64,000 nucleotides of DNA from an uncultured Acidimicrobiia bacterium (GTDB lineage Bacteria; Actinomycetota; Acidimicrobiia; Spongiisociales; UBA11373): the NCBI GenBank assembly GCA_964633975.1, contig CAZWKX010000001.1, positions 63,969 to 127,968 of the forward strand. Reading direction: 5' to 3'. Both the position numbers and the translations under genes were made by a program. Under the pieces are notes generated by a model that was given only the letters and a program-made list of their open reading frames with translations, made no database searches and was not told where the DNA came from. Shown here piece after piece: positions 17,790 through 64,000 of the stretch. Position 1 is the first letter of the stretch, and every line of letters begins with the position of its first letter.

Positions 17790-17899
17790 CTCTCCTCTAT
17801 CGGATCGTGAGGGTTGAAGGATAGAGCACAACCACCCTACGTAGGCAACTCCCCACCGCTTGCGGCCGGGATTCCTGCGGTTAGCGTTGACGCTAGATC

Positions 17900-26434: not shown

Positions 26435-26451
26435 GGAACCCTCCAGTGTAA

Positions 26452-26467
26452 TCGAACATATGTTCGA
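26452..26467. promoter_or_regulatory. LexA/SOS box (actinobacterial Cheo-type) upstream of dnaE2
   Basis: Perfect palindrome TCGAACATATGTTCGA (TCGAAC-N4-GTTCGA) 18 nt upstream of the dnaE2 ATG. Followed on the coding strand by the SD-like GGAGGG. Confidence 0.7.
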
Positions 26468-26496
26468 CCACACTGGGATAGCCCCGGCCATACGCC

Positions 26497-33135: not shown

Positions 33136-33189
33136 GGTGAATCTCCGCCATGGCGGCCCGGTTTCACGGAACGCGCGGTACGATTGGTC

Positions 33190-33292
33190 TGCTCCGGGGA
33201 GCTCGGGATAGCCGAGCTGAGAGGATGGCCGGCCGCACAGGCAACGCCATCGACCCGTGGAACCTGATCTGGGTAATTCCAGCGGAGGGAGC
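33190..33292 (+). ncRNA. TPP (THI-box) riboswitch
   Basis: GGGGAGCUCGGGAUAGCCGAG-CUGAGA-GGAUGGCC...ACCCGUGGAACCUGAUCUGGGUAAUUCCAGCGGAGGGA matches the THI-element consensus (CUGAGA...ACCC..GAACCUGAUCUGGNUAAUNCCAGCGNAGGGA). The 3' GGAGGGA doubles as the SD, 3 nt before the ATG at 33294. Confidence 0.8.
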
Positions 33293-33293
33293 C

Positions 33294-33941
33294 ATGGACG
33301 CCACAGCCGTTGTCTTCACTGGGGGAGATCCGGTACCACACGACTTGCGGCTGATGCTCCCGGACGACGCATTCTTCATCGCCGCGGACTCCGGCCTCCG
33401 CACCGCGTTCGACCTCGAGATCGACGTCGATCTGGTCATCGGTGATCTGGATTCTGCCGATCCGACCGACGTCGCCACGGCGATCGAAGCCGGGGCCGAG
33501 GTCGAGCGGCACCCGGCCGACAAGGACGCCACCGACCTCGAGCTGGCCCTGGAGGCCGCCCTCACCCGCGGCCTGTCTCCCGTCATTGTGGTCGGCGGCG
33601 CCGGATGGGATCGTTTCGACCACCTGCTGGCCAATGCCCTCCTGCTGGCCTCCCCCCGGTTCGCTCCCCTGCGCCCGCGCTGGTGGGTGAAGGGAGCGCA
33701 CGTGACCATCGTGCACGACCGGTCCGTGCTCCAGGGTGTGCCCGGCGACAAGGTCACCCTCCTTGCCGCCGGCGGACCAGTCAAGGGGGTCAACACCAGG
33801 AATCTCCGCTGGCCTCTTGTCAACGAGACGCTCTCACCAGGTTCCACCCGGGGCGTCAGCAACGAGATGACGAGCCACGCGGCCACGATCACCGTGGATG
33901 AGGGGGTACTCATCGCCATCCGAGTAGGGAGGGAGCTTTGA
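33294..33941 (+). CDS. Thiamine pyrophosphokinase (thiamine diphosphokinase)
   Basis: 215 aa from MDATAVVFTGGD. Catalytic motifs VIGDLDS and KDATDLELAL, plus a C-terminal thiamine-binding region. ORF 33150..33941 trimmed because 33190-33292 is the riboswitch. Confidence 0.85.
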   Translation: MDATAVVFTGGDPVPHDLRLMLPDDAFFIAADSGLRTAFDLEIDVDLVIGDLDSADPTDVATAIEAGAEVERHPADKDATDLELALEAALTRGLSPVIVVGGAGWDRFDHLLANALLLASPRFAPLRPRWWVKGAHVTIVHDRSVLQGVPGDKVTLLAAGGPVKGVNTRNLRWPLVNETLSPGSTRGVSNEMTSHAATITVDEGVLIAIRVGREL

Positions 33942-35005
33942 GGACATACCTGGCGGCACTGCTGATCCTTGCCGTCGTCACGGCCGGCTGCGGAGACGAC
34001 GGCGTCGCGACGACGGGTGGGACACCGACGACGGCGGCCGGCGTCGTGCGACTCCTGACCCACGATTCGTTCCTCGTCTCCGACGAGGTGCTCGATCAGT
34101 TCACCGCCGAGACGGGCATCGAGGTCGAGATCCTCGCCGCCGGCGATGCCGGCCTTGTGCTCAACCAAGCGATCCTCACCGCAGGCAACCCCGTCGCCGA
34201 CGTGCTCTTCGGAGTGGACAACACCTTCCTGTCCCGCGCCCTCGACAACGAGATCTTCATACCCTACGAGAGTCCCGGCCTGGCCAGCGTGCCCGACGAC
34301 CTTCAGGTCGATCCCGAGTTCCGGGTGACCCCGATCGACTTCGGCGACGTCTGCCTCAACTACGACAAGGAGGCATTCGACGGGCTGGTTCCGCCCCAGA
34401 CGCTCCTGGATCTCACCGCCCCCGCCTACAAAAGCATGCTCGTGGTGGAGAACCCGGCGACGTCTTCCCCCGGCCTGGCCTTCCTGCTTGCCACCATCGC
34501 CACCTTCCCCGACGACGCCGAGTACACGTGGCACGACTACTGGGCCGACCTGAGAGCCAACGACGTGGACGTCACCGAGGGCTGGGAGACGGCCTACTAC
34601 GGAGAATTCTCTGGCGGCTCGGGCACGGGTGACCGTCCCATCGTGGTCTCCTATGCATCGTCTCCTCCGGCCGAGGTCATCTACGCCGAGGAACCGCTCG
34701 ACGAGGCGCCCACCGGTGTCGTCACCGACGGCTGCTACCGGCAGATCGAGTTCGCCGGCATACTGCGCGGCGCCTCCAACCCCGAGGCCGCAGCCCTGCT
34801 CATCGACTTCATGCTCTCCGAGGCGTTCCAGGAGGACATCCCGCTCAACATGTTCGTGTTTCCGGCCAACCGAGACGCCGAGCTGCCCGTTGAGTTCCTC
34901 GAGTACACCACGCTTCCCCAAAGCCCTCTGAGCATCGACCCGGCCACGATCGACGCCAACCGAGAAGCTTGGCTCGATGAGTGGACGACGATAGTGGTGC
35001 GGTGA
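33938..35005 (+). CDS. Thiamine/Fe(III)-type ABC transporter substrate-binding lipoprotein (TbpA/ThiB-like)
   Basis: 355 aa. Lipoprotein signal MRTYLAALLILAVVTAGCG and a periplasmic-binding-protein fold. Placed between a riboswitch-controlled TPK and the ABC permease/ATPase. Confidence 0.75.
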   Translation: MRTYLAALLILAVVTAGCGDDGVATTGGTPTTAAGVVRLLTHDSFLVSDEVLDQFTAETGIEVEILAAGDAGLVLNQAILTAGNPVADVLFGVDNTFLSRALDNEIFIPYESPGLASVPDDLQVDPEFRVTPIDFGDVCLNYDKEAFDGLVPPQTLLDLTAPAYKSMLVVENPATSSPGLAFLLATIATFPDDAEYTWHDYWADLRANDVDVTEGWETAYYGEFSGGSGTGDRPIVVSYASSPPAEVIYAEEPLDEAPTGVVTDGCYRQIEFAGILRGASNPEAAALLIDFMLSEAFQEDIPLNMFVFPANRDAELPVEFLEYTTLPQSPLSIDPATIDANREAWLDEWTTIVVR

Positions 35006-36633
35006 GACGATCCCCCTGGGCCACCGCGGCGCTGGCCGCGATCCCGCTGAGCTTCCTCGGCGCCTTCTTCATATGGCCGGTGGCATCGATCCTGGTCACC
35101 GGCCTCTTCCCGGGAGGAAGCTTCGATGCCGCACCGTTCCGAGAGGTGCTCACCGACTCCAACCTGCTCGGCGTAGCTTGGTTCACCCTGTGGCAGGCCG
35201 CCGTTTCCACCGTGCTCACACTCGTAGTCGCTCTCCCAGGCGCCTACGTCTTCGCCCGCTTCGAGTTCCCCGGCAAACGGCTCCTGCGGGCCGCCGCCAC
35301 CGTGCCGTTTGTGCTGCCCACGGTCGTGGTGGGCACCGCGTTCCTGGCACTCGTGGGGAACAACGGCCTGCTGGGAGTGCGGCTCGACGGGACCATCTGG
35401 GCCATCCTCGCCGCCCACGTGTTCTTCAACTACGCCGTCGTGCTGCGCACGGTCGGAGGCTTGTGGTCTCATCTGGATCCCGCCCTCGAAGACGCGGCCC
35501 GCTCGCTCGGAGCCAGCCGCTGGCGCGCCTTCACCCGGGTCACCCTGCCGCTGCTGCGCCCCGCCATCGCCGCCGCCGCCTCGATCGTGTTCCTCTTCAC
35601 CTTCACCTCGTTCGGCGTGATCCTGATACTCGGCGGGCCCGGATTGGCCACCCTGGAAGTCGAGATCTACCGCCAGGCCAAGCAGCTCCTGGATCTCCCC
35701 GTGGCCGCAGTGCTGGCGCTCATCCAGATGTTAGGTGTCACCGCCATCCTCACCACCTACTCCCGCCACCAGGAGCGCAGCGCGGTGGAACAGCACCTGC
35801 GTCCCGCCGCCGAGGTGGCGACGCGGCCCCGCACTCGAGGACAGCGCGTCCTGGTCACCGGCGTGCTCACCTCGATGGCGCTCCTCCTCGGCGGACCCAT
35901 CGCCGTTCTCGTGGAGCGCTCGCTCCACGGCGAAGCCGGCTACGGATTCGGCTTCTACCGGGCGCTCGGCCAGGGCAGCCGCACGGGCGCCCGGATAGTC
36001 GATCCGCTGAGGGCAGTCGGCAACTCCGCCTCGTTCGCCCTCGTCGCCACCGGTATCGCCCTGCTCGTCGGTCTCTGCGCCGCCGCCGTGATCGCCAGAA
36101 GAAGAGGGCAGCTCTCCCGCTGGTTCGACACCCTGCTCATGCTGCCCTTGGGCACGTCTGCCGTCACCATCGGCTTCGGCTTCCTCGTCGCCCTCGATGC
36201 CCCCATCGACCTGCGCGCCGCCTGGATCCTCATCCCGCTCGCCCACGCCCTCGTGGCCGTGCCCTTCGTCGTGCGCGCCGTGGTGCCGGTAATGCGCTCG
36301 GTGCGCCAGCGCCTGCGCGAGGCAGCGGCGGTGCTCGGCGCCGCGCCCCACCGGGTGTGGCGTGAAGTGGATCTGCCCCTGGTGGCCCGCGCCACCGCCG
36401 TGGGCGCCGGCTTCGCCTTCGCCGTGTCCCTCGGCGAGTTCGGTGCCACCTCGCTGATAGCCCGGCCTGCCTCGTCTCAGACGGTTCCCCTCGCCATCTA
36501 CCGCTTCTTGGGGCAGCCGGGAACGCTCAACTTCGGCAGAGCCATGGCCATGAGCGTCATCCTCATGGCCGTGACCGCAACCTCGGTCTTCCTCATCGAA
36601 CGATTCCGCACACCGGGGCCGGGCGCGTTCTGA
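34981..36633 (+). CDS. ABC transporter permease with duplicated transmembrane domain (ThiP/FbpB-like)
   Basis: 550 aa, about 12 TM. Two EAA-like loops (EDAARSLGASRWRAFTRVTLPLLRP and REAAAVLGAAPHRVWREVDLPLV). Confidence 0.85.
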   Translation: MDDDSGAVRRSPWATAALAAIPLSFLGAFFIWPVASILVTGLFPGGSFDAAPFREVLTDSNLLGVAWFTLWQAAVSTVLTLVVALPGAYVFARFEFPGKRLLRAAATVPFVLPTVVVGTAFLALVGNNGLLGVRLDGTIWAILAAHVFFNYAVVLRTVGGLWSHLDPALEDAARSLGASRWRAFTRVTLPLLRPAIAAAASIVFLFTFTSFGVILILGGPGLATLEVEIYRQAKQLLDLPVAAVLALIQMLGVTAILTTYSRHQERSAVEQHLRPAAEVATRPRTRGQRVLVTGVLTSMALLLGGPIAVLVERSLHGEAGYGFGFYRALGQGSRTGARIVDPLRAVGNSASFALVATGIALLVGLCAAAVIARRRGQLSRWFDTLLMLPLGTSAVTIGFGFLVALDAPIDLRAAWILIPLAHALVAVPFVVRAVVPVMRSVRQRLREAAAVLGAAPHRVWREVDLPLVARATAVGAGFAFAVSLGEFGATSLIARPASSQTVPLAIYRFLGQPGTLNFGRAMAMSVILMAVTATSVFLIERFRTPGPGAF

Positions 36634-37706
36634 TGCTCGCCGTTCTCGACGTCACCGTGCGCTTCTCGGAGACCTCGGCCCTCGATGCCGTGTCGTTCTC
36701 CGTAGCCGACGGCGAGGTGTTGGCCGTGCTCGGGCCCAGCGGCTCCGGCAAGACCACCTTGTTGCGCGCCGTGGCCGGACTGCAGCCCTTGGACTCAGGC
36801 AGGATCACCTGGGACGGCGGGGACCTCTCCGGAGTGCCCACCCACCGGCGCAACTTCGGCCTCATGTTCCAGGACTTCGCCCTCTTCCCTCACCTCGACG
36901 TCGCCGGCAACGTAGCCTTCGGGCTTCGCATGCAGGGCGTGCCTCCCAAGGAGCGCCGCCGCACCACCACCGAAGCCCTGGAGCGGGTCGAGCTACCCGG
37001 ATTCGAGAATCGCACCATTGCCACCCTGTCCGGTGGTGAGGCGCAGCGGGTCGCTTTGGCCCGGGCCTTGGCTCCGGGACCCCGCATGCTGCTCCTGGAT
37101 GAGCCACTCGGCTCACTCGACCGGGCGCTGCGGGAGCGTCTGAGCGTCGAGCTGCGAACCCTCCTGGAACGGCTCCAGATCACCGCCCTCTACGTCACCC
37201 ACGACCAAACTGAGGCTTTCACCCTCGCCGACCGTGTTGCCGTACTCAACCGGGGCTCGATACTCCAGATCGGGACGGCGGAAGGAGTCTGGTCCCAGCC
37301 AGCCAGCGAGACCGTCGCCAGGTTCCTCGGGCTGCGCAATCTGCTGCCAGGGTCCATCGAGGGCTCCTGGGCCGCCACCGCGATCGGCGCCGTACCGGCC
37401 CCCCGAGGCGCCAACGACGGACCGGCTCGGCTGATCGTCCGTCCCGAGGCCTTCTCCATCGACGACCGGGGCACCATCGAAGGCGTCGTTCGGTCGCGCC
37501 TTTTCAGAGGCACCGACTACCTGGTCGAGATCGAGGCGGGAGGCACCGTCATAGAGGCCCTGCTGCGTCGCGCTCCCGAGCCCGGCTCCAAGGTGCGACT
37601 CGCCGTGGAACCGGGGGGCGTGTCGGCGCTGGCCGCGCCCGCCGTGGCCGGCGGCGCAAACGTCAGCTCCGGACCCGCTCCGCCACCAGAGCCACGAGCA
37701 GGATGA
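36633..37706 (+). CDS. ABC transporter ATP-binding protein with C-terminal TOBE-like domain (ThiQ/FbpC-like)
   Basis: 357 aa with Walker [13 protein letters not shown], signature LSGGEAQRVALARAL and Walker B LLLDEPLGSLD. C-terminal beta domain. Confidence 0.9.
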   Translation: MLAVLDVTVRFSETSALDAVSFSVADGEVLAVLGPSGSGKTTLLRAVAGLQPLDSGRITWDGGDLSGVPTHRRNFGLMFQDFALFPHLDVAGNVAFGLRMQGVPPKERRRTTTEALERVELPGFENRTIATLSGGEAQRVALARALAPGPRMLLLDEPLGSLDRALRERLSVELRTLLERLQITALYVTHDQTEAFTLADRVAVLNRGSILQIGTAEGVWSQPASETVARFLGLRNLLPGSIEGSWAATAIGAVPAPRGANDGPARLIVRPEAFSIDDRGTIEGVVRSRLFRGTDYLVEIEAGGTVIEALLRRAPEPGSKVRLAVEPGGVSALAAPAVAGGANVSSGPAPPPEPRAG

Positions 37707-39225
37707 GCACGGCGGCCCCGCCGACGACGACGTGAGCACCGCCGGTGAACCGGTCCATTCCAAGAGGATCGACCCAGGTCCGTTCGAGCACCTCGAGCAG
37801 CCCCGACAGCACGAACAGGCCCGCCCCGACGATCGCCACCAACAACGCCCTTCTGCGCCGCAACGAGAGCACCACAACGGCCCCGACAACCAAGTGAAAG
37901 GCATTCTGCAGCGGGTTCAGATCGAACATCAGCAAAGCCTCACCCTGGGCGGGCGCCAGGGGGAAAAACCCGGTCTGCCCGAAGCCGAGCAAGCCTATCG
38001 CTATGGCGAACACCCCGAAGCCGACTGCAGCCGCCCGGCCGGGCGAGAGCCTCCCGGGCTGGCCCTTCGGGTGCTTCTCCAGGCGGCCGAAGACCAGGAG
38101 CAGGGCCAGTAGCGGAATCGCGGCCATGAGCAGCCACAACGGACGCAGCTGCCACCACCGGACGGAGCCGATCTCCGGCTCGGGCAGACCCGCGGCGCGC
38201 CACACCCCTCCAGCCAGGGAAATGGCGGTCACGTGCCAGAGGAACATGGTCAGCACGACAGCATGCAGCCGCTTCACCGACCGGCCAAAACGGGGACGCG
38301 CCGAGAGCCGCTGGATGCACGGACGCAGCAGCATGGCCAGCCCCACGAGCCACAGGGTGAGAGCGAGCATGGCCAGGCTGGGGGGCTGTGCGTTCGATCG
38401 AGCCTGCCCGGGCACCCCGACGAGGCTCACCGGGTAGCCGCCGACGGTGGTGAGGAGAACCAGCCCCACCAGTCCGGCGCCGGCGAGCAGCGCCGCCCCC
38501 CGCATGCCCCATCGTTCCAGCGTCCCGTCGGCATAGAAAAAGCCGATCTGATGAGCCAGAAGCCACAGGAGGGCGTAGTTGAGGCCGCCGAGATCGGTGA
38601 GGCCACCCCCGATGGAGACGGCGTCGACGGCGGCCACAGCAAGGGCCAGGACCGCCACGACGGTGAAGCGCGCCCTACGGTGAACCTCCCACGCCGCCGG
38701 GGCCAGTGCCACCGCCACCACGTATATGCCGAGGAACCACAAGGGCAGCGCCGCCACCTCGGCCGCCTCCGCCTTCCCCGGCGCCGTCGGGTCGGCGATT
38801 TCGATGACTGGGGCGGCGGCCAGCCACACCGCCAGGAAGACGTACGTGGGCCGCAGCAGCCGGCCCAGGCGAGCCTCCAGATAGGGCAGGTATGCACCGC
38901 CGTGGCGGGACAGGCAGACCGCGTTGGCAAACCCGCCGATGAAGAAGACGAGCGGCATCACCTGCACCAGCCAGGTGACCAGCCGACCGGCGGCGATCAC
39001 CTCGAGCGCGTTCACCGCATCGACGCCGCCTTCGCTCCACACCACGGTCGTCGTCAGCCAGTGGCTGAGCACCACGACACAGATGCACGCCACCCGGGTG
39101 AAATCGATGAACGGATCCCGCTCCGTCAGATGTCGGGCCTCGAGCGGCGAAAAGGGCCGGCTCCGGGAACCGTCGGGAGTCCCGGTCATCGCGCCATCAC
39201 CGGCGGCGCGGCGCCGCCTCACCAC
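37663..39225 (-). CDS. Acyltransferase family 3 membrane protein (OatA/OafA-like)
   Basis: 520 aa polytopic. N-terminal DFTRVACICVVVLSHWL typical of the acyl_transf_3 family. Confidence 0.8.
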   Translation of the reverse strand: MVRRRRAAGDGAMTGTPDGSRSRPFSPLEARHLTERDPFIDFTRVACICVVVLSHWLTTTVVWSEGGVDAVNALEVIAAGRLVTWLVQVMPLVFFIGGFANAVCLSRHGGAYLPYLEARLGRLLRPTYVFLAVWLAAAPVIEIADPTAPGKAEAAEVAALPLWFLGIYVVAVALAPAAWEVHRRARFTVVAVLALAVAAVDAVSIGGGLTDLGGLNYALLWLLAHQIGFFYADGTLERWGMRGAALLAGAGLVGLVLLTTVGGYPVSLVGVPGQARSNAQPPSLAMLALTLWLVGLAMLLRPCIQRLSARPRFGRSVKRLHAVVLTMFLWHVTAISLAGGVWRAAGLPEPEIGSVRWWQLRPLWLLMAAIPLLALLLVFGRLEKHPKGQPGRLSPGRAAAVGFGVFAIAIGLLGFGQTGFFPLAPAQGEALLMFDLNPLQNAFHLVVGAVVVLSLRRRRALLVAIVGAGLFVLSGLLEVLERTWVDPLGMDRFTGGAHVVVGGAAVLILLVALVAERVRS

Positions 39226-40770
39226 TCATCTCCGATGCGCCACGAGTACGTCTTCCTCATCGAGCACGACCTCCCAGCCTTCCCCCGACACGATCTCGCT
39301 GATCAGGGCGCGATCCCCTTCTCCCAACGACCGCAGCTCGACAACGAGCCACTCCACCGACTCGGCGGAGCGCGGGTTCTCGTCATGCACACCCCAGTTG
39401 TACGGGATCCAAGGGTTGGGGAACTCGAAGATCTCGTGACGATGAGTGAGGTGGGCCACAAACCTGTACGAGGCCGAGACGACGTCGTCCGGCCCGGGCA
39501 GCGCCACCGCTCGCTCCATGACTTCCTGCCTCGAGTTGTCGGCAAGCGGCCAGTAGCCGTCCCTGTAATGGATGCTGACCGGGGAGAGGCCCAGCACGAC
39601 CATGGAGCACAGGCCCAAAGCGCCGACGAGGCCGAGGCCGAAGCGGCGCATCGACATCCGCCTGAGCTTGCCCAGGCCCTCGATCATGGCGATGGTGAAG
39701 GCGAGCACGGGGAGGGCGGCGTAGTGCAGTCTGAAGTTCCAGGTGAACGACTGGATGGAGAGCAGGTTGATGAGGATCTGGGGCAGGCCGATGAGCAGCG
39801 CCCCCGGAGAGAGGAACGGCAGGAGGCCGAAGGGCACGGCCAGATACCAGAGGTACCAGAGGATGTCGGCCTGCCACAAGCGCTCCAGGATCCGAGCCGG
39901 GTCGGTGATCGCCGACTTGATCACCTCGATCGGCGTGTCGCCGAGATCGCCGAAGAACTGCCCGTAGAACGCCCCCTCGGGGTTGAAGATGGGGATGAGC
40001 ATCTGGTTGACGAACACAAACCAGACGGCCGCACCGAGCATCGTGTACAAGCCCACCTTGCGGTGCCCCCTCCACAGGAGCAGAACCCCCAGCATGAGCG
40101 CGGCTAGGGCGACATCCTCCTTCCAGCAGACCGCCAGCGCCAGGAACAGGGCGTAGGGGAGCCACCTTTCGCGCTGAGCCGCCACGTAGGCGCACAGGAA
40201 CGGCGTGATCGCCACGACCTCGGGATGGAAGGTCTCATGCAGCATCCATTGCAGGCCCGCGTTGACGACGAAGGCGAGCGCCGGGATCAACGCATGCCAC
40301 TCGTTGCCCAACACACGCTTCGCCGCCATGAACACCGGCACGCCTCCGAGCACGACGACGGCCACCTGGAATATGTTGAGGAAATGCGGACCGGCGCCCA
40401 GCCAGTAGAACGGAACCAGCAGGAAGTAGCCGAAAGAGCCGTGATGGCCGAGTGTCTGCATGCCTCGCACCGTGTTGAAGCCGGCTCCCCGACTGTGCAG
40501 CCAGATCGATTGATCGAAGATGCCCAGGTCGAATCCGAAGCTGCTGAAGCGGTCGTGCCGCATGAAGACGAGCAATGCGAAGACGATGAACCACGTGAGC
40601 ATCACCGCGGCGAGGATCAGCCGCGGAGCCCCGGCGCGCTTGGCCAGTCGCTTCACGGCCGCCGCCGGGTCGGCACCATCCAGCCTTTCCCGCCACCCTC
40701 CGCCGAGACGGGCCCAGAGGGAACGGGCGGCCATCGCCCCTTGGCTCGTGGCCGACGCCGGTGAGATCAC
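39226..40770 (-). CDS. DUF2079 family membrane protein (predicted GT-C-like glycosyltransferase)
   Basis: 514 aa. RHDRFSSFGFDLGIFDQSIW near the N-terminus matches the DUF2079 signature (recalled). Abuts the acyltransferase with no gap. Confidence 0.7.
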   Translation of the reverse strand: MISPASATSQGAMAARSLWARLGGGWRERLDGADPAAAVKRLAKRAGAPRLILAAVMLTWFIVFALLVFMRHDRFSSFGFDLGIFDQSIWLHSRGAGFNTVRGMQTLGHHGSFGYFLLVPFYWLGAGPHFLNIFQVAVVVLGGVPVFMAAKRVLGNEWHALIPALAFVVNAGLQWMLHETFHPEVVAITPFLCAYVAAQRERWLPYALFLALAVCWKEDVALAALMLGVLLLWRGHRKVGLYTMLGAAVWFVFVNQMLIPIFNPEGAFYGQFFGDLGDTPIEVIKSAITDPARILERLWQADILWYLWYLAVPFGLLPFLSPGALLIGLPQILINLLSIQSFTWNFRLHYAALPVLAFTIAMIEGLGKLRRMSMRRFGLGLVGALGLCSMVVLGLSPVSIHYRDGYWPLADNSRQEVMERAVALPGPDDVVSASYRFVAHLTHRHEIFEFPNPWIPYNWGVHDENPRSAESVEWLVVELRSLGEGDRALISEIVSGEGWEVVLDEEDVLVAHRR

Positions 40771-40834
40771 GGCCGCCCTCCAAGCCGCCGTGAAGCCGGC
40801 GGGGCGGCTCCTCCTAAAAGCGCCGAAAGGCCCC

Positions 40835-41635
40835 TCATCGCGGGAAACCCTCAGGCCGCCGACGCAACAGCCTTCCGATTCCCCACACGGTCACCAACCA
40901 CATCGCCTCTCGGATGATCCGGCCGTCGAGTTTGGACTGTCCCCGGCGGCGCTCGCGGAACGTGATCGGGACCTCCGCGATCCGACAGTCGAGCAGGTGC
41001 GCCCGCCACGCCATCTCCACCTGGAAGGCATAACCCGCAGACCGGCAGGTGTCGGCCCGCAGCCGGCTCAGCGCCTCTGCCCGGAAGGCACGAAAGCCGC
41101 TCGTGAGATCGTGCACCGGAACGCCGAGCATCACACGGGCGTAGCGGTTGCCCCAGCGGGAGAGGAAACGACGGCGCCGCGGCCAGCCTTCGATGGCCCC
41201 ATCCGGGACGAACCGGCTCCCGATGGCGAGTTCGGCGCCGTCTTGTACCGCGGCGACGAGCGCCGGGAGCTGGCCCGGGTCGTGGGAGAGATCGGCATCC
41301 ATCTCGCAGAGGATCTCGGCGCCCGCGGCCAGGGCGGCCGAAAACCCCTCGGCGTATGCGGAGCCGAGGCCCTGCTTGCCCGGCCGATGAAGCACGGAGA
41401 GGCGCGGCTCGTCGGCGGCGAGCTGGTCGGCGAGCCGGCCGGTGCCGTCCGGTGACCCGTCATCGACGACGATCAGGGAATAGGGGTGTTCGAGGATGCG
41501 CGCCACCACCTCGGCCAGGTTCTCCACCTCGTTGTACGTGGGCAGAATCGCACACACCGACCCGGCGGCGGAACCGGGACCCGGCCCTCCTCCCGCCGGC
41601 CTCGGCCGCCTGCCGCCAAGAGGTTTCTGCGTCAC
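40835..41635 (-). CDS. ppm1: Polyprenol-phosphate mannosyltransferase (Ppm1/DPM1-like GT2)
   Basis: 266 aa. VCAILPTYNEVENL...LIVVDDGSPDGTGRLADQLAA...LSVLHRPGKQGLGSAYAEGF is the classical DPM1-type GT2 pattern. Confidence 0.85.
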   Translation of the reverse strand: MTQKPLGGRRPRPAGGGPGPGSAAGSVCAILPTYNEVENLAEVVARILEHPYSLIVVDDGSPDGTGRLADQLAADEPRLSVLHRPGKQGLGSAYAEGFSAALAAGAEILCEMDADLSHDPGQLPALVAAVQDGAELAIGSRFVPDGAIEGWPRRRRFLSRWGNRYARVMLGVPVHDLTSGFRAFRAEALSRLRADTCRSAGYAFQVEMAWRAHLLDCRIAEVPITFRERRRGQSKLDGRIIREAMWLVTVWGIGRLLRRRPEGFPR

Positions 41636-41819
41636 CCGGACCTTCCCAAGGAGAGAGAATCAGGCTAGCCCTGATCACCACCGACGACGTCGCTGCCGTG
41701 GAGCCGCCTCCTCGGCTCCCCGACGTCACCGGCGGCTCGCTGGTGCCTTCTTCCTCGAGCGCTCCGCCGACACGCCAACGCCCGCCCCGGGCAACCAGAG
41801 GGCAGCGCCAGGCCGTTGG

Positions 41820-44102
41820 CTACTGGAGCCCGAGAAATTCCGCGACATCCGAGGCGACCCGATCCGCCTGCTCACGGGCGGCCGCCTCGGCGCCGCTCAG
41901 CTCCTCGCCCGGACCGAGCTGCCGCCGCAAATCGACGTAGATCTTCAGCTTGGGCTCGGTGCCGCTGGGCCGTACCAGGGCGCGGCCAGCCGCCTTGAAA
42001 TCGAAGATGACGAGTGGAGTCGCCGGGAGCCAGCGGGGGCGCCGGTCGGCGCCGGTGCGGAAGTCGGTGACCGAGCCGACTTCAAAGCCGCCGAGCACGG
42101 AAGGCGTGCGCTCCCCCAGCATCTCCATTGCGGCCGCGATCTCGTCGGCCCCCTTCTCGCCGGGCCGCACGACACCGAGCTGTGTGCTGACCCAAAGCCC
42201 ATGCTGCCGGTACAGCCGCTCCAGACGGTCGAGCACGGTCATCCCGAGTGCCCGATCGCCGGCCACCAGATCGGCGAAGACGACCGCGGCGGAGATGCCA
42301 TCCTTGTCCCTGACGAGCCGGCCCACCGTGTAGCCGAGAGCCTCCTCATACCCGAAGACGAACTCCAAGCCTTCGTCGGCCTCGAGATCGAGGGCGGCGT
42401 TGGCGATCCACTTGAACCCGGTGAGCGTGGCCTCACAGCGGGCCCCGTGGGCGGCGGCCACGGCGGCCAGCATCGGCGACGACACGATGCTGCTCGCCAC
42501 CAGCGGGGAGGCCGTGCCCGCGTAGTTTTCGAGCAGGAAATCGGCGAGGGCGATGCCGACCTGGTTCCCGGTGAGCTGCAGCCACCCCGAGGGGCCGGGG
42601 AGGCAGGCGGCGAGCCGGTCGCCGTCGGGATCGTTGGCCAGCACCAGATCGGCGCCGACATCGGCGGCGAGCGCGAGTGCCAGGTCGAGGGCCCCCGGCT
42701 CCTCCGGATTTGGGAAAGGCAACGTGGGGAAACGGCCGTCGGGCTCGGCTTGTTCCGGAACCGTGTGCACATCGGTGTAGCCGGCGGCGCCCAGAGCCTG
42801 CTCGGTCAGGCGTCCGGCCACACCGTGCAGAGGCGTGTAGACGATACGGAGATCACGGTCGGCCTCGACCTGCGGGCGCAGCTCGAGAACATCGCCGATG
42901 TACCGCTCGTACCACTGCGGCGGTATGGGCGCGGCTCGCTGACTCTCCCCATCGAGCACCCCGTCCCGCCGAGACACGTCGGCTGCGGCCCCCACCCGCT
43001 CGATCGCATCGGCTATCCCGGTATCCACCGGCGGAACGATCTGGGCCGCGTTGGCGTCGTACACCTTGTACCCGTTGTCCCTCGGAGGATTGTGACTGGC
43101 CGTTACCACGACGGCGGCCCGGGCCCCGAACACGCGGGCGGCGTAGGCCACCAGCGGCGTAGGCGCCGGCTCCTCGAAGTACCGCACGGGGAGACCGGCC
43201 GCGACCAGCACGCCAACCGTATCGGCGGCAAACGTCCGGCTACTGAGGCGGGCGTCGTAGCCGACGACAACGGGCCCGCCCTCGGGTCGATTCTCGAGGA
43301 GGTAGTCGGCCAGCCCTTTTGTGGTGCGGATCACCGTGGCCCGATTCATACGATTCGAGCCGGCCTCGACTGCCCCGCGGATACCGGCCGTTCCGAACTC
43401 CAGGATGCCGGCCATACGATCCGACAACTCATCGACCGCACCGAGCGCGATGAGACGCTCCAGCTGCGCCCGGGTCTCCGGGTCCGGGTCGCCGTTGATC
43501 CAGGCCCGCGTCTCGGCCAGCAGCGGATCCGGGAGCGCCGCCCGGAGCGCGCCGCCCACGGCTGCCACGCCCTCCTCGGTGGCCAAGTGAGTCATGGTGA
43601 CGTCGTGTGCCTCCAGGGGCAGGCGATCCACGACGAGCTCCGCCGGGACCACACCGATGCGGAGCGCGTCGGGGCGGAGGCGGGCCAAGAGCCGGTCGAA
43701 GTGCCCCGATCCCCGCCCCAGCCTCACACCCTGGGCGTCGAAGAGGACCCCAGGCACGAGCGCGACGTCGATCTCGGTCGGGTCTACCTTCCGCGCCGAT
43801 TCCCTCGGCTGCAGGAAACCTAGGTGGTGCCGCTCCATCGGATCCTCGAAAGGGTGCACGGTGAGCTCGCCACGCCTGGGGGTACGCGTCAAAAACGACT
43901 CCACCTCGAAGCGGAGTGCGGTGACATCAGGCTCATCGGGCAGAGGCTGGTAGAGAAGCACCCGTGCTCCAGGCAGGCCTCCCCAGCGACGCAGTCCGCC
44001 GACGATCTGGAGCGAGATGGCGTGAAGGTCGAGCTTGGACCGTGCGGCGCGCCCCCACTCTCGCCACTCGGCCTTGCTTGCTGCTGGTGGTGGCTGCGAC
44101 AC
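41820..44102 (-). CDS. Fusion protein: N-terminal 5-formyltetrahydrofolate cyclo-ligase (MTHFS) domain + C-terminal phosphomannomutase/phosphoglucomutase (alpha-D-phosphohexomutase)
   Basis: 760 aa single ORF. Residues ~1-210 carry the MTHFS motifs (LLYQPLPDEPD, ALVPGVLFDAQGVRLGRGSGHFDR). Residues ~215-760 carry the PMM/PGM motifs (GDPDPETRAQL...FGTAGIRG; active site TASHNPPRDNGYKVY; GFKWI; GYEEALGY). Confidence 0.8.
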   Translation of the reverse strand: MSQPPPAASKAEWREWGRAARSKLDLHAISLQIVGGLRRWGGLPGARVLLYQPLPDEPDVTALRFEVESFLTRTPRRGELTVHPFEDPMERHHLGFLQPRESARKVDPTEIDVALVPGVLFDAQGVRLGRGSGHFDRLLARLRPDALRIGVVPAELVVDRLPLEAHDVTMTHLATEEGVAAVGGALRAALPDPLLAETRAWINGDPDPETRAQLERLIALGAVDELSDRMAGILEFGTAGIRGAVEAGSNRMNRATVIRTTKGLADYLLENRPEGGPVVVGYDARLSSRTFAADTVGVLVAAGLPVRYFEEPAPTPLVAYAARVFGARAAVVVTASHNPPRDNGYKVYDANAAQIVPPVDTGIADAIERVGAAADVSRRDGVLDGESQRAAPIPPQWYERYIGDVLELRPQVEADRDLRIVYTPLHGVAGRLTEQALGAAGYTDVHTVPEQAEPDGRFPTLPFPNPEEPGALDLALALAADVGADLVLANDPDGDRLAACLPGPSGWLQLTGNQVGIALADFLLENYAGTASPLVASSIVSSPMLAAVAAAHGARCEATLTGFKWIANAALDLEADEGLEFVFGYEEALGYTVGRLVRDKDGISAAVVFADLVAGDRALGMTVLDRLERLYRQHGLWVSTQLGVVRPGEKGADEIAAAMEMLGERTPSVLGGFEVGSVTDFRTGADRRPRWLPATPLVIFDFKAAGRALVRPSGTEPKLKIYVDLRRQLGPGEELSGAEAAAREQADRVASDVAEFLGLQ

Positions 44103-44105
44103 CGG

Positions 44106-45008
44106 CTAGCCGAAAAGTCGGGGGGCCAGGGCCTGAAGCTCCTCGGTCGTGGAGCCGAGCACCGCGTAGCCGGTCTCGTCGCGAATCTGTTCCACGTTGG
44201 CGGCGACGTCCTCAACGCTGAGAGGGCCATCTCCGGGAGCCTTGAAGTAGCCGGCGGTCCGCGCCATGAAGAAGCGGCTCACGTTGCCTCCGGCCACCGA
44301 CCAGACTTCCCCGCTGAACGGGCACTCCTCCGAGCAGAAGTAAGCCACCACCGGCGAGACCAGCTCGGGATCGAGCTTCTCCGCCACCGGGCCCAGTATC
44401 TGCTCGGTCATCCTGGTGCGGGCCACCGGAGCCAGCACGTTCACCTTGATGTCGTACTTGGCGCCTTCGAGTTTGAGGACGTTGGCGAGCCCGACGACTC
44501 CCATCTTGGCCGCACCGTAGTTCGACTGGCCGAAGTTGCCCAGGATGCCGGCGTTGGAGGTGGTCATGACGATGCGACCGTACGACTGAGCGCGCATGAC
44601 CTTCACCGCAGCCTGGGTCACGTAGAAGGCGCCTTTCAGGTGCACATCGAGCACAGCCTCCAGATCGGGCCAGGCCAAGTTGTGAAAGGCCTTGTCGCGT
44701 AGTATGCCGGCGTTGTTCACGAGGATGTCCACCCGTCCGTACTCCTCGACGGCCTTGGCCACGATACCCTCGCCCCCGGCCGGTTCGCCCACCGACGAGT
44801 AGTCGGCAACGGCGCGGCCTCCCGCTTCGACGATCTCGGCAACCACGTCGTCGGCAGGGCGAGCCTCCATGCCGCTTCCATCGGTAGCGACCCCTGGATC
44901 GTTGACCACGACGGCCGCTCCCCTCGATGCCAGCAGCTTGGCGTGGCTGGCCCCAAGCCCTCGCCCGGCACCGGTGACGATGGCGACGCGACCCTGGAAC
45001 CCGATCAT
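44106..45008 (-). CDS. SDR family oxidoreductase (MFE-2/HSD17B4 N-terminal-like)
   Basis: Start MIGFQGRVAIVTGAGRGLGASHAKLLASRGAAVVVND (TGxxxGxG). NAG and YxxxK region (SNYGAAK). Confidence 0.8.
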   Translation of the reverse strand: MIGFQGRVAIVTGAGRGLGASHAKLLASRGAAVVVNDPGVATDGSGMEARPADDVVAEIVEAGGRAVADYSSVGEPAGGEGIVAKAVEEYGRVDILVNNAGILRDKAFHNLAWPDLEAVLDVHLKGAFYVTQAAVKVMRAQSYGRIVMTTSNAGILGNFGQSNYGAAKMGVVGLANVLKLEGAKYDIKVNVLAPVARTRMTEQILGPVAEKLDPELVSPVVAYFCSEECPFSGEVWSVAGGNVSRFFMARTAGYFKAPGDGPLSVEDVAANVEQIRDETGYAVLGSTTEELQALAPRLFG

Positions 45009-45048
45009 CCCCAACCTCCTCGACTCTCCAAGCACTCCGCGGCCGAGG

Positions 45049-46254
45049 CTAGTCCGGTGGTGGCCGACGGTTCGAGAACGCTGCACGCAGAGCCGGCGCC
45101 AGGTCCCCGATGTCACCGACCACGACCGCCTCGAGACTCAGCCAGGAGGCCAGGTGCCCCAGCTCCGACACCAGCGGCGGCACGACTCGGGCCGCCTCCT
45201 CGCCCGGCTCGATGAAGGCCCCCGGCACGAGCAGCAGTCCGCGTTTGCGATCGGCCTTGACATCGACGCGGCCCACCAGGCGGTCTCCAAGGAGAAACGG
45301 CAGAACGTAGTAGCCCCAGCGCCGCATGGAGCGGGGCACGTAGATCTCGATGCGGTAGTGGAAACCGAAGACCCGCTCCACCCGATCCCGATTCCACATG
45401 ACCGGGTCGAAGGGGCAGAGCAGAGCCGCTGCCTCCAGCCGCCGCGGCACCGCCACCTCCGGATGCAGGTATGCGGGATGCCGCCAGCCCTCCACGTCAA
45501 CCAGCTCCAGGGCACCCTCGCCCGCCAGATCGTCGAGCGTGCGGCGGGCGGCCGGGAGAGGGAGCCGGTAGTAGTCGGCGAGGTCCGGCGCCGTTGCCAC
45601 GCCGCACGCCCGGGCCGCCATCAGCAGCAGGCGCCGATGCGCCTCCCGGCGCGGGACCGCCGGCGCCTCGAGGAACTCGGTCGGGATGACCCGCTCCGGC
45701 AAGTCGTAGCGACGGGCGAAGTTGCGCCGACCGGCGACGGCGAGCCTGCCGGTGGCAAACAGCCACTCCAGCGCGATCTTCCCCCGGTTCCAGCCCCACC
45801 ACGAGCCCCTGCGCTCACCGGGATCGGAGAGGTCGGCGGCGCTCACCGGGCCCAGCTCCCGCACCTCATCCAGCACCCGCTCCACATAGCCCGGGTGCTC
45901 CCGGTTGAGGCAGTCGACCCGGATCCACGGGCGCGTCTCGGCCATGCGGTGCCGGAACAGCGGGTAGTCCTCGATGGGCAGGAAGCACGCCTCGTGGCCC
46001 CAGTACTCGAACAGCAGACGACGCTCCTCGAAGGCACGCCACAACAGGCCGCGTTCGTGGTGGCCCAGCCGGGAGAACAGGGTCAGGTGGTGGGCGCGCT
46101 CGAGAACGTTCACCGAGTCGATCTGGAGAGCCCCGATGCGCCGCAACAGACGGCGCACGTGCCGCACGTCGACCCGGCCCGAGGAGCGGGTCTCGGCCAA
46201 GCCTTGTGCACCGAGGGCGATGCGCCGGGCGCGGTGCTGATCGACCCGTCTCAT
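45049..46254 (-). CDS. Winged-helix DNA glycosylase, AlkZ/YcaQ (HTH_42, former DUF1006) family
   Basis: 401 aa. QIDSVNVLERAHHLTLFSRLG, FEYWGHEACFLP and YVLPFLLGDRLVGRVD match the YcaQ/AlkZ family (recalled). Confidence 0.75.
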   Translation of the reverse strand: MRRVDQHRARRIALGAQGLAETRSSGRVDVRHVRRLLRRIGALQIDSVNVLERAHHLTLFSRLGHHERGLLWRAFEERRLLFEYWGHEACFLPIEDYPLFRHRMAETRPWIRVDCLNREHPGYVERVLDEVRELGPVSAADLSDPGERRGSWWGWNRGKIALEWLFATGRLAVAGRRNFARRYDLPERVIPTEFLEAPAVPRREAHRRLLLMAARACGVATAPDLADYYRLPLPAARRTLDDLAGEGALELVDVEGWRHPAYLHPEVAVPRRLEAAALLCPFDPVMWNRDRVERVFGFHYRIEIYVPRSMRRWGYYVLPFLLGDRLVGRVDVKADRKRGLLLVPGAFIEPGEEAARVVPPLVSELGHLASWLSLEAVVVGDIGDLAPALRAAFSNRRPPPD

Positions 46255-46369
46255 GACCTGGGGAGCTCTGGCGGCTCGGCGCTCACGACGAGCACCAGCC
46301 TCGTCCTGCTCCTATCGCGGCCCATGCCCGGCGCGGCCTTCCCTCGTACGGCCGGAGTAGCCTACCGGC

Positions 46370-47140
46370 ATGCTCAAAGCTCTGGGCACGATCGGCGCGG
46401 CCATCCGCACCGGGGTGGGGCTCACCATCGCGGTGCTCTACACGGCCATGGTCGCCAGCTACCTGATCGTGCTCACCAAGTTCCGCCCCACCTCACAACA
46501 CGTGGAGACCGTGGCACGCAGCTGGGGTCGGGTCTTCTGCGCCGCCTGCGGGGTTCGTGCCACCTTCGAAGGTCTCGAACACGTAGACGACGCCGGCTCC
46601 TACGTCTTCGTCTCCAACCACATCTCGGACCTGGACGCCCCGTTCCACCTCGCCTTCGTGCCCGTTGGGATCCGCTTCTTGGCGAAGAAGGAGCTGTTCA
46701 AGATCCCCGTGTTCGGCCGCGCCATGCGAGCCATCGGCATGGTGGAAACCGATCGCCAGGCCCGCGCCGCCGCTCACCGCAAGATCAATGAGCAGGTGGC
46801 CCGGGTGGTGAAGATGGGACGATCGCTCATCATCTACCCGGAGGGAACCCGCTCCCGCGATGGCGAGCTGCACGATTTCAAGAAAGGGGCCTTCCGCATC
46901 GCCATCGAAAACAACATGCCGGTGCTTCCCATCGCCATATCCGGCCTATACGAGATCTGGCCGCCTGGGTCGAAGATCATTCGGGGAGGCCGAGCCAAGA
47001 TGGTGTTCCACGAACCCATTCCCACGTCCGGCCTTGGGACCGACGATATCGACGCACTACGAACCCAGGTGCATGAGATCATCGGCACGGCCTTCGAGCG
47101 CATTCGCCACCAGGTGTCGGCGCCGGCACGTCGCCGCTAG
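46370..47140 (+). CDS. plsC: 1-acyl-sn-glycerol-3-phosphate acyltransferase (PlsC family)
   Basis: 256 aa with the HX4D motif VSNHISDLD, FLAKKEL and YPEGTRSRDG blocks. Confidence 0.85.
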   Translation: MLKALGTIGAAIRTGVGLTIAVLYTAMVASYLIVLTKFRPTSQHVETVARSWGRVFCAACGVRATFEGLEHVDDAGSYVFVSNHISDLDAPFHLAFVPVGIRFLAKKELFKIPVFGRAMRAIGMVETDRQARAAAHRKINEQVARVVKMGRSLIIYPEGTRSRDGELHDFKKGAFRIAIENNMPVLPIAISGLYEIWPPGSKIIRGGRAKMVFHEPIPTSGLGTDDIDALRTQVHEIIGTAFERIRHQVSAPARRR

Positions 47141-47764: not shown

Positions 47765-49207
47765 TCAGTCGTAGATGCCCACCAGGTAGCAGTCTCCTTC
47801 GCGGACCTCACAGAGGAATGCGCCGGCCGAGGTAACGATCTGGTAGCGGTCGGCGTGCTGCTCGCCATCCCACCAGCGCCCGGTGCGCCGCCAGGGCCCG
47901 GCCCAGTTGCGAACCTCTTCCCAGCGGCTCCCCAGCCGTATACGAACGGGGAACCCGTCATCCCACTCCACCTCCACCCGGCAGGGCGGGGGCACGAGCG
48001 CGGGTGCGGGATCGGGCAGGCGGCCCGGCCAAGGCGCTTTCGGGTCGTGCACCGGTTGCGGTGCAGGCTCACCCCAACGATGCCAGCGGACCCGCTCGCC
48101 CGGCTCCCTGCCTCCCTGCGGCACCGCTTGGAGCACGGCGTCGGGCCCCACGAGGACCTGGGCGCGAGCCAGGGCGCGGCGGGCCCCCACCTCCGAGGCG
48201 GCATCCTCGCCGAAACACATCTGACGCCCCGAATCGGAGCGGTCACCGGGAACGAGTCGCAACCGGGCCATGCCCCCGGGAATACCGCCCCCCTCCACCC
48301 AGGCCCGCAGCTGCCACCGGACCCGCTCTGCTATCTCACCCTCGGTGAAAGGATCGGCGCTGCGCCAGGTGCGGGACCGAACCTCACCTGCCGCCGACAT
48401 GGCCTCCACCACCACGAGGTGCGGAATCCCCGGGCCGACGGCTTCGAGGAGCCGGTGTGCCAGCGACTTAGCGGCGAACGCCGCCTGCTCCAGGTCCCGC
48501 AGCGGCGGGTCGAAACGCTCCTCGACCGCCACATCCTGCGGCAACGATCGGGGAGACACCTCCCGGTCCTCGCCGCTGGCCAGCCGATACGCTTCCAGGC
48601 CGATTCTGCCGAAGCGGGACGCCACGGCCTCACGAGGCAGCGCCGCCAGATCCCCCAGCGTGCTGATCCCCAGCCAACGGAAGGTATCGACGATCTCGGA
48701 CACCCCGAGTGTGGCGATGTCGAGGCCGGCGATGAAACCCTCGGTGTCGGCGACCATGGTCTCGCCTTCGGCCGCAGCGCGAGCGGCAAAAGGGCCGTCG
48801 GCGAGGCCGAGCCGGGCGCCGGCTGCCACCTCCCTTACCGCTCGAGCCACGCAGGCAACGAGTGGCTCCTCGCCCCCGTAATAGCGAACGGCTCCCGACA
48901 CGTCGAGGAAGAGCAGCCCCGGTTCGGCCACCTCGACACCGGGAGCCACCGTCTCCACGGCTCGCGCCACCGCCTCAAAAGCAGCCGCCTCGGCGCCGGG
49001 GTCGGCGGGCAGGGTGGCAACCGCCGGACATAGGGTCTCGGCGCGGCGACGCGGCATGCCCACCCGGACGCCGGCGGCGACGGCCAACGCGTTGGCTGCA
49101 GTCACCATCCCGTCGGGGCCAACCACCTGGCAGGGCTCATCCGACGGCGCGTCCGGCCTCCGTAGCGGCCAGCTGGGAAACCACACGCACAACGTCCGTG
49201 CCCTCAT
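47765..49207 (-). CDS. imuB: ImuB (Y-family polymerase-like mutasome subunit)
   Basis: 480 aa. N-terminal MRARTLCVWFPSWPLRR...AANALAVAAGVRVGMPRRRAETLCP is the hallmark ImuB start. UmuC-like fold. Directly downstream of imuA'. Confidence 0.85.
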   Translation of the reverse strand: MRARTLCVWFPSWPLRRPDAPSDEPCQVVGPDGMVTAANALAVAAGVRVGMPRRRAETLCPAVATLPADPGAEAAAFEAVARAVETVAPGVEVAEPGLLFLDVSGAVRYYGGEEPLVACVARAVREVAAGARLGLADGPFAARAAAEGETMVADTEGFIAGLDIATLGVSEIVDTFRWLGISTLGDLAALPREAVASRFGRIGLEAYRLASGEDREVSPRSLPQDVAVEERFDPPLRDLEQAAFAAKSLAHRLLEAVGPGIPHLVVVEAMSAAGEVRSRTWRSADPFTEGEIAERVRWQLRAWVEGGGIPGGMARLRLVPGDRSDSGRQMCFGEDAASEVGARRALARAQVLVGPDAVLQAVPQGGREPGERVRWHRWGEPAPQPVHDPKAPWPGRLPDPAPALVPPPCRVEVEWDDGFPVRIRLGSRWEEVRNWAGPWRRTGRWWDGEQHADRYQIVTSAGAFLCEVREGDCYLVGIYD

Positions 49208-63932: not shown

Positions 63933-64000
63933 CGCAAGGTGAAGGGATCGGCGATATCGAGGTAGATGGCGAGCACGCCCAAGAGGATGAGCAGGATGAC
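63929..64000 (-). CDS. C-terminal fragment of an upstream membrane protein (position suggests RIP metalloprotease RseP), running off window
   Basis: The reverse frame gives ...VILLILLGVLAIYLDIADPFTLR*. Its TGA overlaps the ispG ATG (ATGA). Family assignment rests only on the usual dxr-rseP-ispG gene order. Confidence 0.3.
   Translation of the reverse strand, partial: VILLILLGVLAIYLDIADPFTLR

Follow-up and report, generated by a model that had tools for sequence, protein, structure and literature searches.

A 760-aa protein in which a 5-formyltetrahydrofolate (5-formyl-THF) cyclo-ligase domain (MTHFS) is joined to an alpha-D-phosphohexomutase is encoded by a single minus-strand open reading frame (ORF) at 41820-44102 of the window, by which is meant throughout a 64,000-nt stretch of DNA from an uncultured Acidimicrobiia bacterium (GenBank assembly GCA_964633975.1, contig CAZWKX010000001.1, forward-strand positions 63,969 to 127,968). 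On sequence evidence, this MTHFS::mutase fusion is genuine, old and clade-specific, built from two ordinary enzymes and most likely without any special mechanism. The explanation favoured here as a whole, which we consider probable, is that neighbouring genes fused into one protein whose activities are probably functionally uncoupled, and that the two genes which follow it, encoding a family 2 glycosyltransferase (GT2) and a DUF2079 membrane protein, represent a separate insertion.

Evidence for a genuine fusion protein

Translation of the 760-aa ORF reveals neither a stop codon nor a frameshift between the MTHFS and mutase halves. The Pfam matches place the cyclo-ligase domain (5-FTHF_cyc-lig) at residues 46-176 and the mutase domains (PGM_PMM_I-IV) at residues 235-723, and the protein can be divided into an N-module (residues 1-182, 43557-44102), an inter-domain linker (residues ~183-198, ~43509-43556) and a C-module (residues 199-760 and the stop codon, 41820-43508), all on the minus strand. 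The original prediction, made from the sequence of the window, had described a complete 5-formyl-THF cyclo-ligase running without a stop into a complete phosphomannomutase/phosphoglucomutase (PMM/PGM) phosphohexomutase, and the Pfam and NCBIfam matches together with the translation agree with this. Approximately 180 of the 210 N-terminal residues that it had assigned to MTHFS do match this family, while the junction, which it had placed at 43440-43470, is found slightly upstream, in the linker; positions 43440-43470 lie inside an N-terminal helical extension that is also carried by unfused mutases of the family.

The same architecture is widespread among relatives. When 5.8 billion proteins were searched, the full-length fusion was recovered, at 53-83% identity, in 51 of the 120 clusters that matched best; the homologues derive from NCBI, JGI, ENA and Logan assemblies that are independent of one another. 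One fused protein, P0047, occurs in 48 blocks of the collection, among them the closed 2.2-Mb genome CP129495.1. A scan with the MTHFS domain, covering one genome per GTDB species, recovered 17 further fused species-level loci in which the match runs on into the mutase. With an 82%-identical relative as the reference, dN/dS is 0.15 in the mutase and 0.19 in MTHFS and reaches 0.57 in the linker, indicating that both halves are under purifying selection. The linker is the sole stretch of the fusion alignment that varies both in length and in sequence, and in an AlphaFold2 model of the whole protein (pLDDT 92.7, pTM 0.83) confidence dips at residues 181-190, to a mean pLDDT of 76. A GGAGG-like string in the TEEG codons of the linker precedes an in-frame GTG, and internal translation initiation is conceivable there.

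It could be argued that the long ORF is an assembly artefact, arising from the loss of a stop codon, from a frameshift or from two adjacent genes having been joined chimerically, and the NCBI call for the identical protein, which starts 47 codons later and gives 713 aa, might be cited in its favour. The 47 residues left out of this call are conserved in frame among relatives, backing the GTG start at 44102. Against an artefact stand the recurrence of the uninterrupted architecture in a closed genome and in dozens of assemblies made independently, the maintenance of the linker and both its flanks in frame among relatives, and the lack, in unfused relatives, of a neighbouring MTHFS gene whose stop codon could have disappeared. 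Because of the many independent assemblies, the low dN/dS values and the in-frame N-terminus, an artefact or a recent stop-codon loss can be set aside with near certainty; of the two options that had been offered for this ORF, a real bifunctional protein or a lost stop codon, it is the former that is upheld.

The MTHFS domain

The N-module scores 79.4 bits against PF01812 (cut-off 27) and 87.6 bits against TIGR02727, the bacterial MTHFS equivalog (cut-off 84.9), the latter match spanning residues 10-176 and model positions 1-182. Its best solved relative is the Thermus thermophilus MTHFS-family protein 1WKC (E 2e-26, residues 9-182), and it also matches the Aquifex, Bacillus subtilis, B. anthracis, Mycoplasma and human enzymes. 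The module equals 1WKC, Aquifex 1SOU, B. subtilis YqgN 1YDM and human MTHFS 3HXT in length and can be aligned with them from end to end; E-values to the solved bacterial members range from 2e-26 to 1e-8, and it shares with the solved enzymes the N-terminal K..R helix and the PG..FD..G.RLG.G.G[YFH][YF]D motif. Two differences are apparent: the standalone enzymes are proteins of ~190 aa, whereas here the module forms the N-terminal domain of a 760-aa protein, and at the first aromatic position of the MTHFS GYYD motif the fused clade mostly has His.

In a set of 17 fused, 19 same-locus and 45 outgroup sequences, the invariant residues are K10, R14, E57, D112, P117, G118, F121, G125, R127, G129, G131, G133, D136 and D167, which align with the solved MTHFS enzymes and include the motif P117-G118..F121..G125-x-R127-L-G-x-G131-x-G133-[HYF]-[YF]-D136. 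By profile and motif, the N-module is thus assigned as a predicted 5-formyl-THF cyclo-ligase (5-FCL).

A different assignment is suggested by the neighbourhood. A TPP riboswitch (RF00059, 58.2 bits, 33185-33305) heads a thiamin salvage operon at 33185-37706 on the plus strand, comprising genes for TPK, a ThiB-type binding protein (TIGR01254), a fused permease and an ATPase, which is convergent to the fusion gene block. The position of the riboswitch indicates that the ATG at 33150, the start of the TPK ORF, is too early. This proximity is conserved, as in every related Acidimicrobiia locus read the thiamin operon lies a few genes from the MTHFS(-fusion) gene. A 5-FCL paralogue that lacks 5-FCL activity and is associated with thiamin genes is described, by citation, in PMC3223725 and PMC4120688, and if the N-module were this thiamin-linked COG0212 paralogue, the first activity of the fusion would be another one. 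The score over the TIGR02727 cut-off, at only 2.7 bits, is compatible with such a reading. On the other side, the equivalog cut-off is nonetheless passed with an end-to-end alignment, all the invariant residues of the orthologous group are present, including the K/R helix and G-x-G-[YFH]-[YF]-D, and the thiamin operon is situated on the opposite strand with variable genes in between. Moreover, the nearest relatives outside the Acidimicrobiia include Deinococcaceae; D. radiodurans is reported to have only the bacterial ('Gram-positive') version of 5-FCL, an extra archaeal-type copy being specific to Thermus (PMC1274311). The paralogue assignment is therefore regarded as unlikely, and the cyclo-ligase assignment is retained below.

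The mutase domain

All domains of the four-domain phosphohexomutase layout (PF02878, PF02879, PF02880 and PF00408) are matched in the C-module, and its functional loops are intact and invariant across 120 homologues, namely the phosphoserine loop T334-A-S336-H-N-P, the metal loop D491-P-D493-G-D495-R, the sugar loop G584-Y-E586-E587-A and the phosphate loop R711-P-S-G-T-E-P. The DPDGDR, YEEA and SGTEP strings in the translation fit the criteria given for the PGM2/2L1 subgroup (PMC5570346); like human PGM2, the module has a Pro between the first two Asp residues of the metal loop (D-P-D-x-D-R), an 'EE' sugar loop without Ser and a Glu in the phosphate loop (SGTEP). It is set apart from other PGM2/PgcA-type phospho-sugar mutases, among them human PGM2 and the PGMs of Gram-positive bacteria, by the extra N-terminal MTHFS domain.

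In contrast, the curated PMM or PMM/PGM equivalog models all fail by a wide margin: the ManB/CpsG-type models NF007088 and NF011943 score 61.1 and 37 against cut-offs of 618 and 801, respectively, and NF046027 scores 69 against 600. The module is accordingly classified by its motifs and profile scores as PGM2/PgcA-type and not as a ManB-type PMM, and 'phosphomannomutase', the name used in the original prediction, is to be read as a generic label. Its predicted substrate is most likely a glucose phosphate, with a pentose possible and mannose not indicated. The pentose preference of human PGM2 has been tied tentatively to the 'EE' without a following Ser, and bacterial PGM2-like enzymes may simply be efficient PGMs (PMC5570346). 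The structure model of the mutase resembles solved PGM/PMM enzymes, with a TM-score of ~0.8 normalised on target length and an identity of at most 24%; no solved structure above this identity was present among the fold-comparison matches.

Another Acidimicrobiia genome (L091, 11835-13536) carries a 461-aa four-domain PGM/PMM-family gene beside genes for bact-PGI_C, a PGI/PMI-type isomerase domain, and AdoHcyase, ~6 kb from a DUF2079 gene. This trio resembles the classical actinobacterial manB/manA/sahH cluster, and the arrangement points to a dedicated PMM separate from the PGM2-type mutase.

Origin of the fusion

The fusion gene belongs to a conserved locus. Its backbone consists of genes for an ImuB-like IMS-family protein, a methyltransferase, PlsC, in some cases ECH, an AlkZ-like protein and a short-chain dehydrogenase/reductase (SDR), followed by the position occupied in the window by the fusion, then by a variable stretch and, beyond it, by the convergent thiamin ABC transporter and TPK. 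In the window, the SDR gene (FabG-like; 44106-45116, minus strand; PF00106 and PRK07791-type SDR models) stops 3 nt before the GTG start of the fusion. By synteny, the SDR, the (MTHFS-)mutase and a gene for a membrane acyltransferase-3 (AT3) fused to DUF4383 are all members of the conserved backbone.

What follows the SDR gene differs between lineages. The MTHFS::mutase fusion is found there in the window and at least 17 species, a standalone MTHFS gene with no mutase within 8 kb in ~10 species, an MTHFS gene fused to a YbaK-like tRNA_edit domain in one locus (L014), and a mutase alone in four loci (L007-L010), in three of which it starts 46 nt after the SDR gene. The SDR to MTHFS adjacency is thus kept in both the fused and the standalone configurations, and the SDR gene leads directly into the mutase where the MTHFS part is missing. 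The possibility that the unfused 573-aa mutases are accompanied by a separately called, adjacent MTHFS gene was ruled out, as in the loci read for this purpose the SDR gene ends 46 nt before them.

In a neighbour-joining (NJ) tree of MTHFS domains, with Deinococcota as the outgroup, the fused sequences make up what is essentially a single group, which lies within the standalone genes of the same locus. The mutase tree differs, in that the fused sequences are monophyletic in none of 200 bootstraps, and the window group is placed within a clade of otherwise unfused sequences in 138 of 200. The mutase of the window is 69-70% identical to the unfused 573-aa 'phospho-sugar mutases' at the same locus, compared with 55-66% to most of the fused ones.

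The simplest reading of these data is a scenario in three steps. The MTHFS gene would have been long established in a housekeeping locus that is conserved among Acidimicrobiia (ImuB-like, methyltransferase, PlsC, AlkZ, SDR, MTHFS); in one clade, a mutase gene would have landed directly downstream of it and the reading frames would have merged, in a single old fusion then inherited through divergence down to ~55% identity; and in at least one subclade the MTHFS part would have been deleted again, leaving the SDR gene followed by the mutase. The fusion thus most likely arose by the joining of neighbouring genes.

Two side observations concern this locus in relatives. In one mutase-only relative, the genes for both glycine-cleavage P-protein subunits and NAD kinase are located just upstream of the backbone (L008, 3177-6136); the P-protein pair, which belongs to a folate-dependent pathway, and the NAD kinase are absent from that place in the window. 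Predicted proteins of 680-734 aa without a Pfam match (L003, 12441-14486; L014, 9500-11554; L175, 6678-8882) occupy the variable stretch by the fusion gene, or adjoin Ppm1-like genes, and these could be further uncharacterised envelope proteins.

Are the two activities coupled?

The protein would consist of two catalytic modules, each of them autonomous, with a short and flexible linker in between. The N-module would convert 5-formyl-THF to 5,10-methenyl-THF with ATP, and the C-module would use phospho-Ser336 and Mg2+ to interconvert a sugar 1-phosphate with the 6-phosphate (or 5-phosphate). A metabolic rationale for their joining would not be needed if the protein has been kept as a tolerated fusion of neighbouring genes that maintains co-expression of both housekeeping activities.

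Among the 150 best MTHFS-domain matches, from a library with one representative per 50%-identity cluster, only one fused representative was present, and close MTHFS relatives are fused instead to a YbaK-like tRNA_edit domain (three cases), MerB, a methyltransferase, a metallo-beta-lactamase or GNAT (L014, 7782-9050; proteins P0135, P0256, P0137, P0166, P0189 and P0229). This promiscuity of partners, together with the secondary loss of MTHFS, argues for a tolerated fusion rather than a link between folate and sugar pathways. In several of the fused loci, tRNA_edit is encoded by a separate gene in the same neighbourhood.

The opposing view is that the fusion is functionally meaningful, in the 'Rosetta stone' sense of both modules acting in one process, either with a phosphopentomutase feeding ribose-5-phosphate and phosphoribosyl pyrophosphate while MTHFS supplies one-carbon folates for purines, or with MTHFS regulating the mutase. 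Actinobacterial MTHFS genes are often found beside galU, which encodes another sugar-1-phosphate enzyme, and this lends the idea some background. It is also favoured by the persistence of the fusion under purifying selection between deeply diverged lineages, by the shortness of the linker, by the confident model of the single chain (pTM 0.83) and by the 'EE' sugar loop without a following Ser, as in human PGM2 (PMC5570346). Yet MTHFS was secondarily lost from proteins whose mutase stayed in place at the locus, sister lineages have a standalone MTHFS with no mutase within 8 kb, and the fusion partners of close MTHFS relatives are of at least five unrelated kinds. In addition, neither a nucleoside phosphorylase nor a purine gene is present in the neighbourhoods read, and the adjacency of MTHFS and mutase was not seen in the Deinococcota relatives. 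Such a shared process is therefore judged improbable, about as much so as the thiamin-linked paralogue. Less probable again is a more specific version, in which MTHFS packs on the mutase and acts as a regulator of sugar-phosphate flux responsive to ATP or 5-formyl-THF, or in which one-carbon folate salvage is linked to the provision of pentose phosphates for making nucleotides; if it were true, the fusion would expose a connection between folate and sugar phosphates that is invisible where the genes are separate.

Several points weigh against the favoured account of two uncoupled enzymes brought together by one old fusion. The TIGR02727 cut-off is passed only narrowly. Node support in the NJ trees is modest, as the window and its unfused sister clade group together in 91 of 200 bootstraps and strict monophyly of the fused MTHFS domains is recovered in 8 of 100, so that the number and order of the fusion and loss events are not firmly fixed. 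Loss or retention of MTHFS and mutase was judged at the level of the locus. Finally, retention across deep divergence, a short linker and a pTM of 0.83 would also be expected of a packed, functionally meaningful two-domain enzyme.

The GT2 and DUF2079 genes

The fusion gene is the first of four consecutive minus-strand ORFs, the others being those for the GT2 (40835-41635), the DUF2079 protein (39226-40770) and the AT3-DUF4383 protein (37663-39225). The original prediction had listed the same four genes, as acyltransferase-3, DUF2079, Ppm1 and a 760-aa ORF, and both the ORFs and the Pfam matches, all of which exceed the curated cut-offs, are in agreement. The GC content at third codon positions of the four ORFs is 0.83-0.88, which is strong and typical of real genes (window 68% GC), and the closest protein matches of the window are exclusively from metagenome-assembled genomes of Acidimicrobiia. 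The starts of GT2, DUF2079 and the upstream SDR gene are probably 12-36 codons downstream of the longest-ORF starts; that of GT2 probably lies near 41557, since its homologues are typically ~240 aa. A scan of 37400-46500 yielded no promoters, and terminators at background level.

The GT2 protein (266 aa as the longest ORF; PF00535, E 7e-33) has as its best PDB match the Pyrococcus furiosus dolichol-phosphate (Dol-P)-mannose synthase PfDPMS (5MLZ, E 6e-35 over 219 residues), with its DAD motif aligned to DAD. It shares the catalytic domain of this enzyme, differing from it in the lack of the four C-terminal transmembrane helices. In their source records, proteins that share 58-65% identity with it carry the name 'polyprenol monophosphomannose synthase', as used by NCBI, or Dol-P mannosyltransferase. 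It falls below every NCBIfam equivalog cut-off, with AglJ, Dol-P-hexose transferase and PpgS as the best matches. Overall, GT2 can be classed as a putative Ppm1/DPM1-like polyprenyl-phosphate hexose synthase, with mannose probably as its sugar, and in this respect the earlier identification as Ppm1 is corroborated.

For the DUF2079 protein (514 aa, matching DUF2079 over its full length with E 4e-60), a profile search against PDB sequences gave nothing meaningful, and fold comparison alone was informative: the membrane core of the model is superposable on solved GT-C glycosyltransferases, a structure-based comparison that the original prediction had proposed. Identity to GT-C enzymes (PMT/Pmt4, ALG9/ALG12, ArnT, PglB/AglB/STT3, AftB and PimE) is only 7-16%. 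Two acidic residues of the sequence FDLGIFDQ, D81 and D86, are invariant in 48 homologues and directly follow the first long transmembrane helix (H48-73), so that they would be predicted to lie in the first loop on the extracytoplasmic side. That the protein uses a polyprenyl-phosphate-linked sugar donor is only suggested, by its adjacency to the Ppm1-like GT2 in this lineage. No papers on DUF2079 were found in the literature search.

The distribution of these two genes differs from that of their neighbours. Only the window and its ~80%-identical relatives (L001, L002 and L094) have GT2 and DUF2079 located between the genes for the mutase and AT3; a 60% relative, the closed genome and the unfused relatives lack both at this locus. 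Among the unfused relatives, the AT3-DUF4383 gene comes immediately after the mutase gene, and in the 60% relative it is found nearby; it is therefore a backbone gene and not part of the insertion. In other Acidimicrobiia, DUF2079 homologues (47-50% identity) and Ppm1-like homologues (61-63%) reside in unrelated neighbourhoods. A generally conserved pairing of the two was ruled out, as the orthologous GT2 adjoins DUF2079 in one of 80 metagenomic loci, which is that of a relative of the window. GT2 and DUF2079 would then be a separate, lineage-specific two-gene insertion, in which a lipid-linked hexose synthase accompanies a GT-C transferase acting, with the lipid-linked sugar as its donor, at the external face of the membrane; they are plausibly functional as a pair, independently of the fusion protein.

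These results bear on the proposal that the four genes constitute one envelope-mannosylation operon, with the mutase providing mannose 1-phosphate, Ppm1 forming polyprenyl-phosphate mannose, DUF2079 transferring the sugar and AT3 carrying out acylation. The original prediction had presented the series from PMM through GDP-mannose and Ppm1 to GT-C as a coherent cluster. The shared strand of all four genes, the 0-nt gap between DUF2079 and AT3, the DPM1-like character of GT2 and the GT-C fold of DUF2079 would all fit such an operon. Nevertheless, the mutase is of the PGM2/PgcA type and scores below the cut-offs of the PMM models, a gap of 184 nt (41636-41819) separates the fusion gene from GT2, and no GDP-mannose pyrophosphorylase gene was found in the 64,000-nt window. 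Furthermore, most relatives have the mutase and AT3 pair without GT2 and DUF2079, and homologues of the latter two occur elsewhere without the mutase. We therefore give a single operon little credence, slightly less than a shared process for the two modules of the fusion, and the metabolic logic of the original prediction holds only in part.

In ~10 of the 80 loci, DUF2079 adjoins a different GT2, and the two of these that were examined (L146, 7476-9140, and L172, 4568-6043) encode fusions of GT2 with a class-I methyltransferase; the Ppm1-like GT2 of the window is not part of this arrangement. DUF2079 is often duplicated nearby, usually in tandem, in other loci. These observations on DUF2079 neighbourhoods also draw on L107, L113, L127, L136, L140 and L150.

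Implications for annotation

The domain architecture is present but mislabelled in databases, and it is undescribed in the literature searched, where neither a fusion of MTHFS with phosphoglucomutase nor papers on 1WKC were found. Fusions of 740-760 aa are named after one half only, as '5-formyltetrahydrofolate cyclo-ligase' by NCBI or 'phosphomannomutase' by JGI, and because of this naming, metabolic reconstructions of Acidimicrobiia may miss a PGM-type mutase or MTHFS, or may wrongly infer a PMM.

Current understanding is not overturned by these findings, whose value lies in annotation, in a caution about fusions and in the GT-C assignment of DUF2079. The locus offers a natural series, from standalone gene to mutase fusion, fusions with other neighbours and secondary loss of one half, and it serves as a caution for Rosetta-stone inference that a deeply conserved fusion need not mean a pathway link. 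The GT-C fold gives the DUF2079 family, which is uncharacterised, widespread in Acidimicrobiia and often found in tandem, a testable activity.

Other features of the window

Three tandem paralogues that combine a PGA_cap (CapA-like) domain with RTX calcium-binding repeats are encoded at 17900-19387, 19430-20929 and 21650-23206, and they are adjoined by an S8 subtilase with nine RTX repeats (15561-17831, minus strand). A 1092-aa DnaE-type polymerase is encoded at 23213-26491 and the ImuB-like IMS-family gene at 47765-49207, both on the minus strand and ~21 kb apart; the IMS gene, which is part of the backbone around the fusion, is preceded in relatives by a gene with an MT3502_N domain. At the other end of the gene block, the 3' ends of the AT3-DUF4383 (520 aa; PF01757, Acyl_transf_3, and PF14325; minus strand) and thiamin ABC ATPase (plus strand) genes overlap convergently, when the longest ORFs are taken, by 44 nt (37663-37706).

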